From an uncultured virus (IMG/VR IMGVR_UViG_3300022660_000058) (Duplodnaviria > Heunggongvirae > Uroviricota > Caudoviricetes), in IMG/VR virus record IMGVR_UViG_3300022660_000058: a stretch of 64,000 bases of DNA; one strand, 5' to 3'. A program made the translations under genes and the position numbers. The notes beneath the pieces are model-generated. The model worked only from the letters and a program-made list of their open reading frames with translations. It made no database searches and was not told the DNA's origin. This document shows, piece by piece, positions 6,809-64,000 of the stretch (position 1 is the stretch's first letter; every line of letters begins with the position of its first letter).

Positions 6809-7187
6809 ATATCACATCATCAAAAACAGCATACTGAATAATACAATCACAAGTAGTAGCATCGTAATTCTCTAAATCACAATCCCAAGGTCTTTCTTCT
6901 GCATTTTTCTGTATTCCTACAAGCAATCTGTCAAGGGTAAAATCATACTTAGGCTCTTCATCCTCTTTTATATCTGTGATTTTAACTTTGCCACCATTCA
7001 GGATAATCTTTGCTACAATTTCAGCAGTAGCAAGGTCTGTTGTATTGTAATACTTTTCAAATTCCTCTGTGTCATTGTGAAGCATAGCCCAATATCCAAT
7101 GCCTGTTTCAAGCCCATCAATGACAAGATTCGTAATCTCTTCTTCTGTGATTTTCTTCTTAATTGTATATTCAAACTCTCTGCTCAT
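6801..7187 (-). CDS. hypothetical phage protein
   Basis: AAGGAG RBS; GIGYWA and DATTCDCIIQYAVFDDVIFG phage-type motifs. Confidence 0.75.
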   Translation of the reverse strand: MSREFEYTIKKKITEEEITNLVIDGLETGIGYWAMLHNDTEEFEKYYNTTDLATAEIVAKIILNGGKVKITDIKEDEEPKYDFTLDRLLVGIQKNAEERPWDCDLENYDATTCDCIIQYAVFDDVIFG

Positions 7188-7198
7188 ATTATCTCTCC

Positions 7199-7408
7199 TT
7201 ATCCCATTTTATAATTTTTGTACCAACTGTCTTTTCTCGGTGTTGTTCTTGGCTTATATTTATTACAATCTTTTATATCACAACCTCTCGGTTCTTCTGT
7301 TTTTATACAATAACAACAAGCTTTATACGGTGTGTATTCCCACATAAGGATTTCACCATATTCACAACTCTCCCACTTCGGACAGTCACAATGTTTTACA
7401 TTACTCAT
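7199..7408 (-). CDS. hypothetical Cys-rich protein
   Basis: GAGGT RBS, co-oriented. Confidence 0.6.
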   Translation of the reverse strand: MSNVKHCDCPKWESCEYGEILMWEYTPYKACCYCIKTEEPRGCDIKDCNKYKPRTTPRKDSWYKNYKMG

Positions 7409-7441
7409 AATTCAATACCTCTTTCTTTATTATACTCTTTA

Positions 7442-7858
7442 TTATTCTTTAGTCCAATAGTTTCCTATACAACCGTCTGTGCTATCCCAAGTATCAATCA
7501 CTTTTCCATCTTTAATGCAGACTATATGACCACCACCAATATGTGCCACACAAGTGCCTTTAAACTTTTTCACAAATTCTACACCTGTATATTTTGTGCC
7601 ATCTGCTTTTTTAGGCTGTTTCTGTTTTATCCAACCATTATCAGCTAAATATTTGGAATAACATTCTGTACTACCCATAGACACTTTATATTTGATGACA
7701 TACTCAAATAATCCTTTTGCCACATCATCCCAGCTTTTATCCATTGCAGTACATATTGCCCTTATAACACAATCACCTGTTCTTCTGTCTTTAGGATTTG
7801 CATTATAAAACTTAAAAGATTTTGTGTTTGTTGGTATTTTTCTAATTGCCATAATCAT
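7442..7858 (-). CDS. phage protein with possible Cys-His-Asp hydrolase motif
   Basis: YNANP...GDCVIRAI...HIVCI...DTWDS; start revised (AGGAG RBS; promoter 7883-7911). Confidence 0.65.
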   Translation of the reverse strand: MIMAIRKIPTNTKSFKFYNANPKDRRTGDCVIRAICTAMDKSWDDVAKGLFEYVIKYKVSMGSTECYSKYLADNGWIKQKQPKKADGTKYTGVEFVKKFKGTCVAHIGGGHIVCIKDGKVIDTWDSTDGCIGNYWTKE

Positions 7859-7882
7859 AACTCCTTTTCTGTTGTTGATATA

Positions 7883-7911
7883 ATTATAACATACATAATG
7901 CAATTTGTCAA
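7883..7911 (-). promoter_or_regulatory. sigmaA promoter
   Basis: TTGACA-17-TATAAT with extended TG. Confidence 0.8.
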
Positions 7912-7943
7912 TACCTTTTTTAAAATTTTATTTTATTTTTTTG

Positions 7944-8108
7944 TCAGTATTCTAAAGATTTCTGCCAACTTTTATCTTTTCTGTTGTACTTATCTTTCCT
8001 ATTAACAACTTTTGTTATCGGTGAACAAGTCCACAAAGTTCTCTGCTTATTATTCTGCTCTTTCTTTTGTTTCTTATTAGGATTTTTATTTGTTACATAT
8101 CGTTTCAT
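7944..8108 (-). CDS. small basic hypothetical protein
   Basis: AAGGAG RBS before MKRYV. Confidence 0.6.
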   Translation of the reverse strand: MKRYVTNKNPNKKQKKEQNNKQRTLWTCSPITKVVNRKDKYNRKDKSWQKSLEY

Positions 8109-8299
8109 AATTAATACTCCTTGTAAGGACATTCAAGCACACAATTTAAGCAATCATTATTACAATAACCATTTTCAACTGTACTGCTTTCACCATTGTC
8201 ATAGCTTTCAAATGCATCATATTCTGCCATTTTGCTCATAGCTTCTGTGCCATAGATAAATCTGTTAATATTCTGTCTCATAATTATAATCTCCTTCTG

Positions 8300-8881
8300 T
8301 CAAATTTCAATATCGTCAATGGTTAAATTACTTATTCTAATTCTTTCTGCTATAAATTCTTTTGCCAATACTTTAAGTCTATCAATATCAGCTAATACAC
8401 TCTCACCTTTTATTGATAAATCTGAATCAGTTACTCTTTTATATACCTTTTCATACTCTGCTCTAATGCTCATTAAATGCTCATTAAAGCTCTTTATATA
8501 AGAGGTAATATAAATTCCCTGCTCACCCTCATAAATCGCTCTAACCTGTGTAGAATACATTATTTTATGCTCTACAAAGTGAATGTTTAACATATCGGCA
8601 GGAATATATAAATCTGCTTCTATATCACTACCACAAAACTCTTTACCTTGACTGATAGCAAATACTGTTCCGTCAAACTTAACTTTTCTCTTCAGCTTCA
8701 ACTCTTCTATGGGTAATTCAACTTCTTTTATATCACCCTGCTTTGTTTCAAGCCAACCACTATTTGAGGAAACAACAATCCCCTCTGCATTATAAAAATG
8801 TATCTGATGAATTTTATAAGCCTTATTGTTTACTGTTATTGCATAAGGTCTGTACCAATTAGTTGTTCTTCCTATCTTCAT
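8300..8881 (-). CDS. hypothetical phage protein
   Basis: GGAGG RBS, 193 aa, co-oriented. Confidence 0.75.
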   Translation of the reverse strand: MKIGRTTNWYRPYAITVNNKAYKIHQIHFYNAEGIVVSSNSGWLETKQGDIKEVELPIEELKLKRKVKFDGTVFAISQGKEFCGSDIEADLYIPADMLNIHFVEHKIMYSTQVRAIYEGEQGIYITSYIKSFNEHLMSIRAEYEKVYKRVTDSDLSIKGESVLADIDRLKVLAKEFIAERIRISNLTIDDIEI

Positions 8882-9069
8882 AATTAATCCTCCCTAAGTA
8901 ATCTTTGAAGTCTATCAACTTCCCTTTGCAATGCTCGTGGGTCTTTGCCACACTCATCCATTTGTTCAATGGTTGACTGCAAATATTCTATTCTGTGTTC
9001 TACATACTGTTTGCATCTTATGAGTATTTCCATACCTTTAATAAAATCATTATCCATAACAAACCCTCC

Positions 9070-9591
9070 TTAAACTGCAATTTTTGAATACCAAGTTTCA
9101 CCATTACTGAATCTTGCTGATACACCATAAGCTTCAAAACCATACTCTTCACCAAGCTTTTTGAGTATCTTATTTATTTTGTTGATTTCTGACTTGTATT
9201 TTCTTCTTGCCTGACTTCTATACATATCATAGTAACAATGTGCATCATAGTTATCAAGGTCAAGCTCACCGTTAGCATCTTCATCGTGATGCATAGTTTC
9301 ACAATAAAACTGAACACCTGAATAATAGCCACTCTTTAATTCAATCTTGTGGAAAATCAAATCATAATTGATTTCTTTAAGCTTTTTATCAATCTCATTG
9401 CAAATGTACTCTGCCTCCCATTCATCATAAAAGCTTTCTGCTTCATTTGATAAATCACAACCACAAAATTCACATTCATCATTTTCGTTATCCTGCATTG
9501 TTCTACATTCGGGACAAATTTTACACTCTTCATAAAAATCTCTTGCCCAAAGAGGGAAATTATCCATACTCCAAAAATTAGCTGTACCCAT
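9070..9591 (-). CDS. hypothetical phage protein with zinc ribbon
   Basis: CPEC..CEFC, GYYSGVQF, FSNGETWY. Confidence 0.75.
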   Translation of the reverse strand: MGTANFWSMDNFPLWARDFYEECKICPECRTMQDNENDECEFCGCDLSNEAESFYDEWEAEYICNEIDKKLKEINYDLIFHKIELKSGYYSGVQFYCETMHHDEDANGELDLDNYDAHCYYDMYRSQARRKYKSEINKINKILKKLGEEYGFEAYGVSARFSNGETWYSKIAV

Positions 9592-28140: not shown

Positions 28141-28162
28141 TGGTAAAATTTGTGTTTTTCTC

Positions 28163-28191
28163 TTGACAAATAAACAAAATAATATTATAAT
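28163..28191 (+). promoter_or_regulatory. sigmaA promoter of the RNA polymerase operon
   Basis: TTGACA AATAAACAAAATAATAT TATAAT. Confidence 0.85.
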
Positions 28192-28238
28192 ATAAGTATA
28201 AGAATAATTAATAAACAACTAATAAAGGTGGTGACTTT

Positions 28239-60142: not shown

Positions 60143-62062
60143 ATGGCAGATATAGAATTTAGAGTTGATGCGGTATTAGGTGATACTTCTCAACTACAAC
60201 AACAATTAAATAATTTAAGAACAAATTTAAATTTAACAATAGATAATCGTCAGGCATTACAATCTATACAAGCAGTTCAGCAACAAATTAATAATTTACA
60301 GCGAACTATGAATAATATGAATTTCAATATTGGTGGTGCTGGCGGTAGAGGTGGTGGCACACGAAACGGTGGCAATGGTGTTAATGCTTTAACCGCACAA
60401 TTTGAAACTACAACATTACAAAAAACAGATTCATTATATAGACAAATTAGTAACACTGTTAATGGAACTGTTAAAAATATTCAAGTATTACGAAATGAAC
60501 AGGGTCAAATTGTTAGTGGTGTTGTTACAATTTCCAACGGCTACCAAACTTGGCGAAGAAATTTAGAGTTTGTTAATGGACAATATCAAAGAGTAATTGC
60601 AAGTGGTAGAGATACCATTTCTTTGTCGCAAAAGTCAAATGATTTATATAGACAAAGAGAACAACACCTCAAAAACATTAGTAATATTAAAAGGCAATTA
60701 TTAACTGCTACAGGTGACGAAAAACGAGTTCTTGAACAACAACTGCAATCAGAACAACGATTAAGTAAATTGGTTGCCAATAGAATTAGTCGTAAAAATT
60801 CAAGTGGCGTTGCTATGAACCAAACAAACGAAGGTGAAACTCGTATTAATCAGCTTAAGACACAGCTTGCATACGAAGAAAGATTAGCACAAGCCAAAGT
60901 GCGAGTTAAACAAGCAACAATAGAGCAGAACGCTCTTAATAAGCTTGGTATGGATACAGGTACTAAACTTAATACAAGTAGCATTAAAGATATAGAATCT
61001 CTTAAAACAGCATTATCTTCAGCTAATATAGGTTGGAACGATAATACACATTCTATTAAGCAGTTTTCTCAACATATAGATAATGCAGGTAATACTGTCA
61101 CCAAATTTACCACTCGTCAAAAATCAGTAGAGAATGGCGTAGAGGTTTGGAAAGATACTTCGTATGCTGTTTCGGATGCCGATGGTAAATTAAGGCAATA
61201 TGGTCAAACTCAAAATCAAGTTCTTAATACTCAACAAAGTTTAAGCACTATGCTTACTTCTGCAATAGAAAGATTTGCAGTTTGGGGTATTGCAATGAAG
61301 ATTTGGACAGGTATTGGCAATGCTATTTCTGATTGTATTAGTTATACAAAAGAATTAAATAGTGCAATGACCAACATTCGTGTTGTTACTATGGATACCC
61401 AAGAAGCAACAGAAGATTTGCTTAAAACATATAACCAAATGGCTCAAAGACTTGGTGCAAATACAACTGATATTGCATCGGGTGCGATTGACTGGTTAAG
61501 GCAGGGTTTTAGTGAAGAAGATACAGCTCAATTAGTAGAGAGTTCTACCGTTTTAAGTAAATTAGCTCTTATTGACAATGCTGAAGCAACCGAATATTTA
61601 ACTTCTGCATTAAAGGGTTATAAGTTAGAAGCAAAAGATGCTATGGGCGTTATTGACCAATTAACCTCTATCGACTTAGAGGCGGCTACTTCAGCAAGTG
61701 ATATGGCGGAGGCAATGAGCCGTACTGCTAATATGGCAAAAACAACAGGTTTTGAAATGAATGAATTGCTTGGTGTTATTGCTACAGTAAGTGAAGTTAC
61801 CCAAATGTCGGCATCTACTGTCGGTAACTCAATGAAAACCTTGCTCTCTCGTATGTCGAATGTTAAAGCAGGTGTTGAGATTGACCCTGAAAGTGGTGAA
61901 GCACTTAACGATGTTGAAAAGGTATTAAATCGTGTTGGTATTGCTCTGAGAGATAATCAGGGAAATTGGTATGATTTCTACAATGTTCTTGATGAGATAG
62001 CTTCACGATGGGATGAATTTAGTGATATTCAGCAATCACAGATTACAACTGCTCTTGGTGGT
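60143..62062 (+). CDS. tail tape measure protein, exon 1
   Basis: TP901-type TMP core (WLRQG, VGNSMKTL, EIASRW); 640 codons ending ...QITTALGG at the intron 5' splice site. Confidence 0.88.
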
Positions 62063-62208
62063 AAACAAAAGCCGAGTGCCACAACATACAGTAATGTATG
62101 GTGTTTAGCAGTATAATATAAACACAGAAGATGACCATATCGGGAAAACTCCTATTAGATAAGGACAATTCCGAGGAAAGATTAGTTTAATAATATAAAT
62201 GGAAATAC

Positions 62209-62237
62209 TTGACAAACAAATAAAATAATATTATAAT
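62209..62237 (+). promoter_or_regulatory. intron-internal sigmaA promoter for the endonuclease
   Basis: TTGACA AACAAATAAAATAATAT TATAAT, then AAGGAGG RBS. Confidence 0.85.
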
Positions 62238-62254
62238 ATAAGAAAGGAGGAAGT

Positions 62255-63367
62255 ATGGCAAGAAGTAAATGGACAGAAGATAAAGTACAGTTTTTAATAG
62301 ACAATTATAATCAAATGTCTATTGATGAAATTGCAGAGAAATTAAATATAAGTAAATGGACTATTTATGATAAAGTTAAAGAATTGGGTATTGGTAAGCA
62401 ATTCAAGTGGACAAATGCTAAAATTGAGATTTTAAAAGAATACTACCCTATTGGCGATTGGGATATTTTGTTTGAGAAGTTAGGCATAACAAATAAACGG
62501 TGCATAACGGATAAGGCGTGTTCACTTGGTATACATATGGACAGTAAAGTATGGACACAGACCGAAGAACAGTATTTAATTAATAATTACAATAAATTAA
62601 CTATATCTGAAATGGCAAAATATTTAAACCGAACTGAAAGTGCAATTATGACAAGAGGTTATAAATTAAATATCACAAATTCAAATATATGGACAGATGA
62701 AGATTTAGAATTATTACGAGAATTATACCCTATTCATTCTAATAAATATTTATCTGAAAATGTTTTTACAACAAAATCTCCCGAATCCATTAGAACCAAA
62801 GGGTTGCTTCTTGGATTACATAAATCTAAAGAAAAAGGGTTAAAGAAGTATTATAATAAAGATTTAATTTTGCAACAATTAAAAGATGTAGCAAAAGAAA
62901 TTGGTCGTACTCCCCTTTATAGTGAATTATGTTCTTTGGGTTTACCATCTGAAAAAACATTTGAGAGATTATTTGGTAGTTATCGTACCGCTTGTTTAGA
63001 TGCAGGGATAGATATAAATTGTGATGTTTTTGGTAATTGTAAATATCATATTGCTTCTGATAATACCATATGCCTTTCTTATGCAGAACTTATTATTACT
63101 GAATATTTAATTCAACATAATTTATCTTATCAAAAAGAATTATATTATAAAGATTTTATCAATGATAAACGCTGTGGAACAAAAAGATTTGATTGGAAAG
63201 TTGGAGAATATTTTATAGAATATTTTGGAATGATGAGCCGAGAAGATTATAAATGGTCTGCTGAAGATAAAATTAAAATATGTCAAGAAAACAATATAAA
63301 ATTAATAGAATTATATCCAAAAGATTTACCACATTTGGATAATAAATTAAATATATTATTAAACTAA
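62255..63367 (+). CDS. intron-encoded homing endonuclease (HTH repeats + PD-(D/E)xK/Vsr-like nuclease)
   Basis: Four WT..E...L...Y repeats, GRTP...FGSY repeat, S..E...RFDW...IEYFG...K nuclease domain. Confidence 0.8.
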   Translation: MARSKWTEDKVQFLIDNYNQMSIDEIAEKLNISKWTIYDKVKELGIGKQFKWTNAKIEILKEYYPIGDWDILFEKLGITNKRCITDKACSLGIHMDSKVWTQTEEQYLINNYNKLTISEMAKYLNRTESAIMTRGYKLNITNSNIWTDEDLELLRELYPIHSNKYLSENVFTTKSPESIRTKGLLLGLHKSKEKGLKKYYNKDLILQQLKDVAKEIGRTPLYSELCSLGLPSEKTFERLFGSYRTACLDAGIDINCDVFGNCKYHIASDNTICLSYAELIITEYLIQHNLSYQKELYYKDFINDKRCGTKRFDWKVGEYFIEYFGMMSREDYKWSAEDKIKICQENNIKLIELYPKDLPHLDNKLNILLN

Positions 63368-63594
63368 AATCCGTAACGACTAAATATCCATATGGTGACA
63401 TATGGGTTTACGCCATCCACCCTACTTAATTGAGGGTGAAGATAGAGTCTGTTCTGCACATATATATCTAAATAAAATAAAAGTGCAGAGTTAAGATGAA
63501 AGTCTTAACCGTTGTGAGATATGACACAATAGTAACATTTAGATTGAATAGAAAATCATATCTATAATACAAAATTTCTATTATCAATCAAAAA

Positions 63595-64000
63595 ACTCGG
63601 CAAAGAGAAAATGTCCTCGTAATGCTCGAAAACTGGGATAAGGTTAAACAATATGCTGAAACAGGTGCAAAGTCCGCAGGTACAGCAATGGAAAAATACG
63701 GCGTTATACTTGAAGGCGTTGAAGCAAAACAAGCACAATTAAATGCAAAAGTACAAGATTTTTATACAAATGTTTTTGATAGTGGGCTTATCACAGGTTT
63801 ATTAGACCTTGGTAAAGGTTTTATGGATATTATAAACCTTGGTGATGGATTAGTTGGCAAGATATTATTATTAGTAACTGCTTTAACCGCCTTAAATTTT
63901 GCGGTAAAATCTAATGCTTTAAGTGGTTTTCGTAATATACTTGTAGAGGTTGGCTCGGCTGTTAAAGAGGTTATTATGGCTATACCTCGATTAATAGCAG
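63595..64000 (+). CDS. tail tape measure protein, exon 2 (runs off the window)
   Basis: Open frame TRQRENVLVMLENWDKVK...SAGTAMEKY, the expected continuation of ...TALGG. Confidence 0.85.

Follow-up and report, generated by a model that had tools for sequence, protein, structure and literature searches.

The tape-measure genes of Bacillus cereus-group prophages are known to carry the group I introns TMP-IVS1, IVS2, and IVS3 (Tourasse and Kolsto, 2008, PMC2504315). In the features of these introns described there that concern us here, they are self-splicing introns of the IA type, they occur with or without endonuclease genes at conserved sites in the tape-measure gene, several of them may be present in a single gene, and their P1 and P10 pairings are adapted to the site.

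For the choice of the 3' splice site by group I introns, a guanosine at the end of the intron (omega-G) is regarded as a nearly invariable requirement. A natural group I intron ending in A is nevertheless found in the ND5 gene of hexacoral mitochondria (ND5-717; PMC8146996, PMC6545197), and its catalytic core is described as compact and conserved (PMC6545197). Since natural exceptions of this kind have been published, omega-G is a near-universal rather than a defining feature; no paper on group I introns was found under the term omegaA. The Coxiella burnetii intron Cbu.L1917, located in the gene for 23S rRNA and a subject of work by Raghavan in 2007, reportedly also ends in A.

The element described here was found in the window, that is, the whole 64,000-nt stretch of DNA analyzed, which belongs to an uncultured virus of the Caudoviricetes (IMG/VR record IMGVR_UViG_3300022660_000058). 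Positions 62063-63594 are predicted to constitute a group I intron and ribozyme, whose P6 loop holds an endonuclease-like gene and which is located inside the tape-measure gene of a gut phage. The TMP-IVS introns share its IA-like type, its type of insertion site and the adaptation of P1 and P10, and their occurrence several to a gene recalls the four introns of virus record G002 described below. The window intron differs from them in that its last base is A, its P10 is unusually strong, and 52 nt follow the ancestral omega position, the terminal base of the TMP-IVS introns being outside this comparison. With ND5-717 and, reportedly, Cbu.L1917, it shares a final A in a position occupied almost universally by G. 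Neither of those two is a phage intron, one interrupting an organelle gene and the other an rRNA gene; the features described for ND5-717 in the sources cited above include neither a hairpin insertion at the 3' end nor a link with a strong P10, and the splicing of both introns has experimental or transcript support, whereas the window intron is known from its sequence alone. The original prediction had called ligation after an A an unusual mechanism: rare it is, but natural A-ending introns have been published and it is not unprecedented. The element is a real, rare variant, introns ending in A having already been documented.

The split tape-measure gene and its exon junction

The first exon of the tape-measure gene was placed at 60143..62062 (+ strand, as are all the features described below) on the basis of the ORF list, Pfam, and homologs. 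It ends in ...ITTALGG (GGT GGT), and the Pfam PhageMin_Tail match, which covers residues 432-640, stops exactly at ALGG. Then come 192 nt of structured RNA, an ORF of 370 codons (62255-63367), and 227 nt, after which an open frame reads TRQRENVLVMLENWDKV... This second exon (63595..64000) runs off the window, and its first 7 nt, ACUCGGC, form one strand of the predicted P10.

The exon-2 peptide, when used as a query, gave 29 proteins. Eighteen of these are long tape-measure proteins running unbroken through ...SQITTALGG-TRQRENVLVMLENWDKV... with the pattern [AL][LI]GGTRQRENV, while five begin at MLENWDKV: the window's own product and P0004, P0015, P0024, and P0030. The exon-2 ORFs with this start in the four relatives are 351-1964 aa long and, judging from these sequences, the four genes and that of the window are split near the same place. 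The spacing is kept in remote homologs, BCPST reading AG-RHQLSRF, EF1 AG-KYQAETF, and several metagenome loci AG-VRQRE. Since the uninterrupted homologs read ALGG/TRQRENV (the slash marks the junction), the mature message must read GGU/ACU. The first base of the intron and that of the second exon are both A, so only a one-base ambiguity is left, and the intron ends in A in both registers (A63594, or A63595 in the alternative register). The terminal A is fixed independently by the gene product, that is, by the 18 read-through homologs at GG/TRQ, and the same is true of L032 and L036, two related introns described below. The last 43 nt of the intron are free of G, and the omega-G of group I introns is therefore absent. 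The motif ACUCGG has three occurrences in 63,994 window positions, one of which is exactly at the junction demanded by homology; this placement is well beyond chance. The base preceding ACT at 63595 is A, as first noted from the sequence, and both the homologs and P10 make A63594 the last base of the intron.

The original prediction also envisaged an intron ending at G63600, an in-frame position at which the intron would again have a G as its last base, the product then lacking Thr-Arg (ALGG/QRENV). We consider such an end highly improbable: TRQRE is present in all of the 18 read-through homologs, the P10 energy after G63600 is +1.2 kcal/mol, and this G would be hidden in the distal end of the helix ACUCGG/CCGAGU. 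Moreover, the first exon codons are ACU CGG CAA in the window and ACC AGA CAG in L032, which both encode TRQ although five of the nine bases differ, and the guide sequence has changed in step. Since TRQ is kept despite these differences, the first three exon codons appear to be translated, which would exclude a deletion of Thr-Arg. Another candidate, combining a 5' site after 62067/62068 with G63599/G63600 as omega-G (ALGGKQQRENV), was rejected, there being no U at -1 and no P1, and the homologs reading TRQ.

The exon-1 product of the window is recorded on 18 contigs. In six further cluster representatives, 82-90% identical in the 238 C-terminal residues that were aligned, the protein ends in the intron-encoded tail KQKPSA[TV]TYSNVWCLAV, which is either the same as that of the window or different at one residue. 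To judge from these protein sequences, the split tape-measure gene is widespread. Scans of viral, metagenome, and genome contigs for close tape-measure relatives gave only remote ones (31-48% identity) and one 18-residue match at 67%, and blastn of 61400-64000 against phage DNA gave no match.

In ten tape-measure relatives in the range P0040-P0050, with identities of 74-80%, the split occurs at this site too, but the intron-encoded tail is a different one (KQNFFAKCLNTQKCVA and two variants). Back-translation of the KQNFFAKCLNTQKCVA tail suggests an AU-rich P10 flank, and a second intron type may occupy the site. Two other tape-measure genes are broken a few codons further downstream: that of L011 after RQR(E) at about 1700-2190, with an intron end reading ...UAUAG, and that of L013 after NWDLVKK near the end of the contig. 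From the distribution of such breaks, the short conserved stretch of the tape-measure gene at the site and just downstream of it is taken to be a hotspot of intron insertion. The annotation of Geobacillus virus E3 (L002, 2776-3087) divides the tape-measure gene into two CDS with about 310 nt between them, and the gap may hide an unannotated intron without an ORF.

Predicted intron core and the endonuclease gene

The predicted intron (62063..63594, 1532 nt) is IA-like and has a hairpin P7.1. Positions 62058..62082 comprise P1 and the guide sequence: the exon sequence GUGGU (62058-62062) pairs with GCCAC (62078-82) in 5 bp with a duplex energy of -6.9 kcal/mol, and the wobble U62062.G62078 lies at the 5' splice site. 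The flank GCCGAGU (62071-62077), directly 5' of the guide half of P1, forms with ACUCGGC (63595-63601) a P10 of 7 bp with an energy of -12.7 kcal/mol, as compared with only -0.4 kcal/mol after G63542, the other rival site besides G63600. P1 and P10 thus adjoin each other along the guide sequence, and both indicate the same junction.

The fold further includes P2 (62085-90/62095-100), P2.1 (62101-07/62119-25), P3 (62130-35/63412-17), P4 (62140-45/62169-74), P5 (62150-53/62162-65), and P6a (62182-97/63352-67), a 16-nt inverted repeat which forms 16 bp and encloses the ORF. The 3' half of the catalytic core (63376..63450) consists of P7 (63378-81/63446-49, with C63377 bulged), P7.1 (63388-94/63399-405), P8 (63418-23/63433-38), and J8/7 (AAGAUAG), and both P7.1 and P8 show compensatory changes in the family alignment. 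In the region of P9, P9.1, and P9.2 (63454..63529), which was folded by MFE, P9 (63454-59/63483-88) and P9.1 (63490-96/63503-09) co-vary in the family, and P9.2 (63512-16/63525-29) was obtained from the MFE fold. Compensatory change affects 18 of the 34 pairs in the consensus fold of six family members. P7 is GACU/AGUC in all six aligned sequences, and the G-binding pair G63378-C63449 is G-C in each of them, in keeping with its canonical appearance in the first reading of the sequence. R-like and S-like elements are also present (GUAACGACUAA and AAGAUAGAGUC); the exact 19-mer of the R element had no match in the viral contigs.

Rfam gave no match at the gathering score on the window, where the scan covered an intron carrying a 1.1-kb ORF in P6, and only one chance snoRNA on 61000-64000 at E <= 10. 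The ORF-less ortholog in L032 matched Rfam RF00028 from end to end (model positions 1-253) with 24.9 bits and E = 4e-4, the gathering score being 50.

The ORF in the P6 loop (62255..63367, 370 aa; ORF list, Pfam) is homing-endonuclease-like. Pfam identified HNH_repeat (PF18780, E = 5.8e-10) and HTH_11 in it and found no catalytic nuclease domain, the last ~110 residues being devoid of Pfam domains; searches with the protein against phages gave only partial, remote matches. Upstream of the ORF, at about 62208-62242, there is a promoter-like TTGACA...TATAAT sequence, a 35-mer 94% identical to positions 28162-28196 of the window, and the endonuclease gene may have its own phage-type promoter.

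Relatives ending in G and sisters ending in A

Motif scans of viral contigs yielded a large intron family with the same core. Its 3' end consists of AGUAACA, a few bases, and a G directly followed by the exon (examples being AGUAACAGAUUG/, AGUAACAAAUCG/, and AGUAACAGUUUUUG/), omega-G typically being the fifth base after the invariant AGUAACA (AGUAACA-N4-G/exon). Among the 45 loci obtained in one of the motif scans, 30 had the AGUAACA tail within the fetched flank, and these gave 15 distinct 5'/3' end types. In 13 of the 15, a G is present at +5, +6, or +9 after AGUAACA and P10 is AU-rich, with energies of -2.1 to +2.0 kcal/mol, the junction in most of these 13 types having been assumed from the first G after AGUAACA without a homolog check. 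The two end types which lack such a G are the only ones with a strong P10.

At the same gene site, introns ending in G are carried by L031, L079, and virus record G002 (intron C). Four related group I introns, all ending in G and with short exons between them, interrupt the tape-measure gene of G002 (L028, about 6940-9560), and the one located at the window's site has an ORF of 381 codons. The related record G003 is devoid of an intron at this site and reads NLAG-RYQLTRF.

The nearest same-site relatives, L032, L034, and L036, which are three contigs from one metagenome (IMG/VR 3300045988) representing two sequence variants, end in A (AGUAACAUUUUA/ACCAGACAG, the exon beginning with ACCAGA). 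These sisters have in common with the window intron the insertion site G/TRQ (IAG/TRQRENAL in their case), the start AAACAA (GGU/AAACAAG), the AGUAACA tail, a 7-bp P10, and the final A, as well as the layout of P2, P2.1, P7.1, P8, P9, P9.1, and P9.2. They differ from it in that they have no hairpin, and the A is the fifth base after AGUAACA and touches the exon; the L032 intron has no endonuclease gene, and that of L036 has a different ORF of 341 aa. P1 reads CAGGU/GCUUG in these sisters and P10 reads ACCAGAC/GUCUGGU, with 7 bp and an energy of -11.2 kcal/mol. Between the window and L032, both bases have changed in three of the seven P10 pairs and in two of the five P1 pairs, pairing being preserved throughout. 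A comparison of L032 with L036 shows six synonymous differences and no amino acid changes in the nine codons (RENALALFE) following TRQ, and since the differences are synonymous only, exon 2 appears to be under selection at the protein level downstream of an intron ending in A. No difference in P7 or J6/7 separates the members ending in G from those ending in A.

L032 (1698-2352) has two consecutive group I introns separated by a micro-exon of ~23 nt (GATAIAG): the first ends in G and scores 73.5 bits in Rfam, and the second is the A-ending sister of the window intron. P0026, which starts ME/TRQ, was tried as a second case of an intron ending in A and dropped, since Glu can be encoded by GAA or GAG.

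The 3' end of the intron and the choice of the splice site

The family-conserved 3' tail, AGUAACA-UUUA-G, is located at 63531..63542 (AGUAACA at 63531-63537), AGUAAC being invariant in the six aligned sequences. Since G63542 is the fifth base after AGUAACA, as in the relatives, it is homologous to the omega-G of the family, and the early impression that this G looks like a normal intron end is strongly borne out. The pairing between AAC (63534-36) and GUU after P7 that was proposed along with it shows no covariation, AGUAAC being invariant whereas the bases after P7 vary (UU, AA, GU, CU).

As had been described from the sequence, a frame-breaking segment of 52 nt starting with ATT GAA TAG follows (63543-63594), in which G occurs only at 63546 and 63551. 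Together with G63542 it is predicted to form a hairpin (63542..63589) of 13 bp with a 2-nt bulge, a 20-nt loop, and the closing pair G63542-C63589. The energy of this fold is -8.4 kcal/mol, as against an average of -2.3 in shuffled sequences (z = -4.0), none of 200 shuffles folding as well. Next come five single-stranded A residues (63590..63594), the last of which, the omega-A A63594, is the putative 3' splice site, and then ACT CGG CAA at 63595. The original prediction had looked to homologous introns for both the hairpin and the terminal A: the A is kept in L032, L034, and L036, whereas the hairpin is absent from all the aligned relatives. No further copies of it were found within the 64-kb window, and a search with the 3' tail against phage DNA gave only short chance or core-motif matches, including one to the intron region of crAssphage. 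We read the hairpin as a lineage-specific insertion into the 3' tail, which the lineage would tolerate because P10 sets the splice site.

Logan contigs from runs X8 (63533-63770) and X9 (63218-63600) show no differences from the window, at low depth (3.1 and 3.6) and in runs that may share one sampling campaign. The proposed check of the reads at 63590-63595 thus gave the same bases and no G at 63594, and since contigs of two other runs agree, A63594 is not a one-off assembly error. No variant without the hairpin was found among the sequencing-run contigs covering the stretch. A skip of 862 nt in run X2 was disregarded, since its shorter side measures only 21 nt. The sequencing runs listed as containing the stretch include no RNA runs.

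The comparative evidence favors the first model of the original prediction, in which the exons are joined after A63594 and the hairpin forms a 3' extension of the intron. The second splicing step of this mobile group I intron probably takes place after the adenosine A63594 instead of a guanosine, the 3' site being set by P10. In the first step, to judge from the structure, a free guanosine bound at G63378-C63449 in P7 would attack after U62062, which P1 would present as a U.G wobble. In the second, the 7-bp, GC-containing P10 adjoining P1 would place A63595 beside U62062, and ligation would give GGU-ACU, read ...ALGG-TRQRENV..., as expected from the homologs. In the small clade formed at this site by the window intron, L032, L034, and L036, what sets the 3' site is apparently the unusually strong P10 rather than omega-G. 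In the predicted fold, G63542 is held in a G-C pair of the hairpin, which might in this way keep it out of the G-binding site. Several points speak against ligation after A63594: the A-ending relatives represent two sequence variants from a single metagenome; the G-binding site shows no change favoring A, P7 and J6/7 being the same whichever base ends the intron; G63542 is exactly where the omega-G of the relatives docks and could compete or be used instead; and the sequestration of G63542 is the prediction of an AU-rich structure of only -8.4 kcal/mol.

Some of these points would also suit an intron crippled by the 52-nt insertion, with little or no correct splicing, in which case the tape-measure gene would be broken and the phage defective, or the variant recent and deleterious. 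The family's omega position, G63542, is indeed separated from the exon by 52 nt, and the G-binding site is not adapted to A. We regard a crippled intron as unlikely, however, given that the same sequence is present in contigs of several runs, with the exon-1 product on 18 contigs, and that the six diverged relatives have the same tail or one differing at a single residue. Neither the endonuclease ORF nor the core helices nor either exon is damaged; a functional junction calls for just such a strong P10; and the sister without a hairpin also ends in A and has an exon 2 under purifying selection.

The position of G63542 also allows for two competing 3' sites, the ratio between which would be set by the hairpin: splicing at A63594 would give the full-length protein, and splicing at G63542 a product of 642 residues ending in ALGG-Ile-Glu-stop. 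Such an arrangement would account for the presence of AUU GAA UAG directly after a G at the family's omega position and for the inclusion of this G in the closing pair of the hairpin. It seems quite unlikely in view of the P10 energy of only -0.4 kcal/mol after G63542 and the fact that none of the relatives aligned shows anything similar, the proposal being purely inferential; we know of no function for a truncated tape-measure protein.

The remaining model of the original prediction is based on splicing at G63542 as well, the 52 nt staying in the mRNA and being passed by ribosomal bypass, or by read-through with a +1 shift on the run of A residues. In phage T4 gene 60, ribosomes bypass a non-coding gap of ~50 nt which contains a hairpin and a stop codon and interrupts an essential phage gene. 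Bypass of this type involves matched take-off and landing codons, with the stop directly after the take-off codon. The window resembles gene 60 in having a gap of about 50 nt with a hairpin and a stop in an essential phage gene, but it shows no matched codons, the UAG comes two codons after GGU and not adjacent to it, and the gap is itself part of an intron whose splice site is defined by P10. The codon before ACU is AAA, and since there is no Gly landing codon at this point, a hop of the gene 60 type does not fit and is not supported as the mechanism here.

The read-through version fares no better. G63542 is a canonical end, the frame of exon 2 is open from 63568, and the A6 run (63590-63595) could let tRNA-Lys slip by +1, a shift which would be needed because 52 = 17x3+1. 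TAG ends none of the 44 ORFs of at least 150 codons in the window (34 end in TAA and 10 in TGA) and interrupts none of them; it appears to be altogether avoided in the window, which counts in favor of this version. Suppression of TAG would be needed, however, whereas no tRNA genes, suppressors included, were found in the 64-kb window and no long ORF has a TAG in frame; 17 extra residues would be placed inside the invariant GG/TRQ motif, and the 7-bp P10 would be left unexplained. We therefore consider retention of the 52 nt in the message very improbable.

If ligation does take place after A63594, tools and curators looking for a terminal G would misplace the junction and call an essential tape-measure gene broken. 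What is new here is that a hairpin occupies the ancestral omega position and that the loss of omega-G is associated with a strong P10. Within one family and at the same gene site, introns of three kinds are found: those with omega-G and a weak P10, those with omega-A and a strong P10, and a single one that combines these two features with a 52-nt hairpin where omega used to be. More tentatively, the clade may no longer need omega-G at all, the extended GC-containing P10 alone directing the ligation, and G63542 could be a decoy or a switch. If this were true, it would explain why a change from G to A at the omega position, as in the L032 type, and a 52-nt hairpin before the splice site are tolerated, and G63542, alternately free and locked in the stem, could decide whether a truncating or a productive 3' splice site is used.
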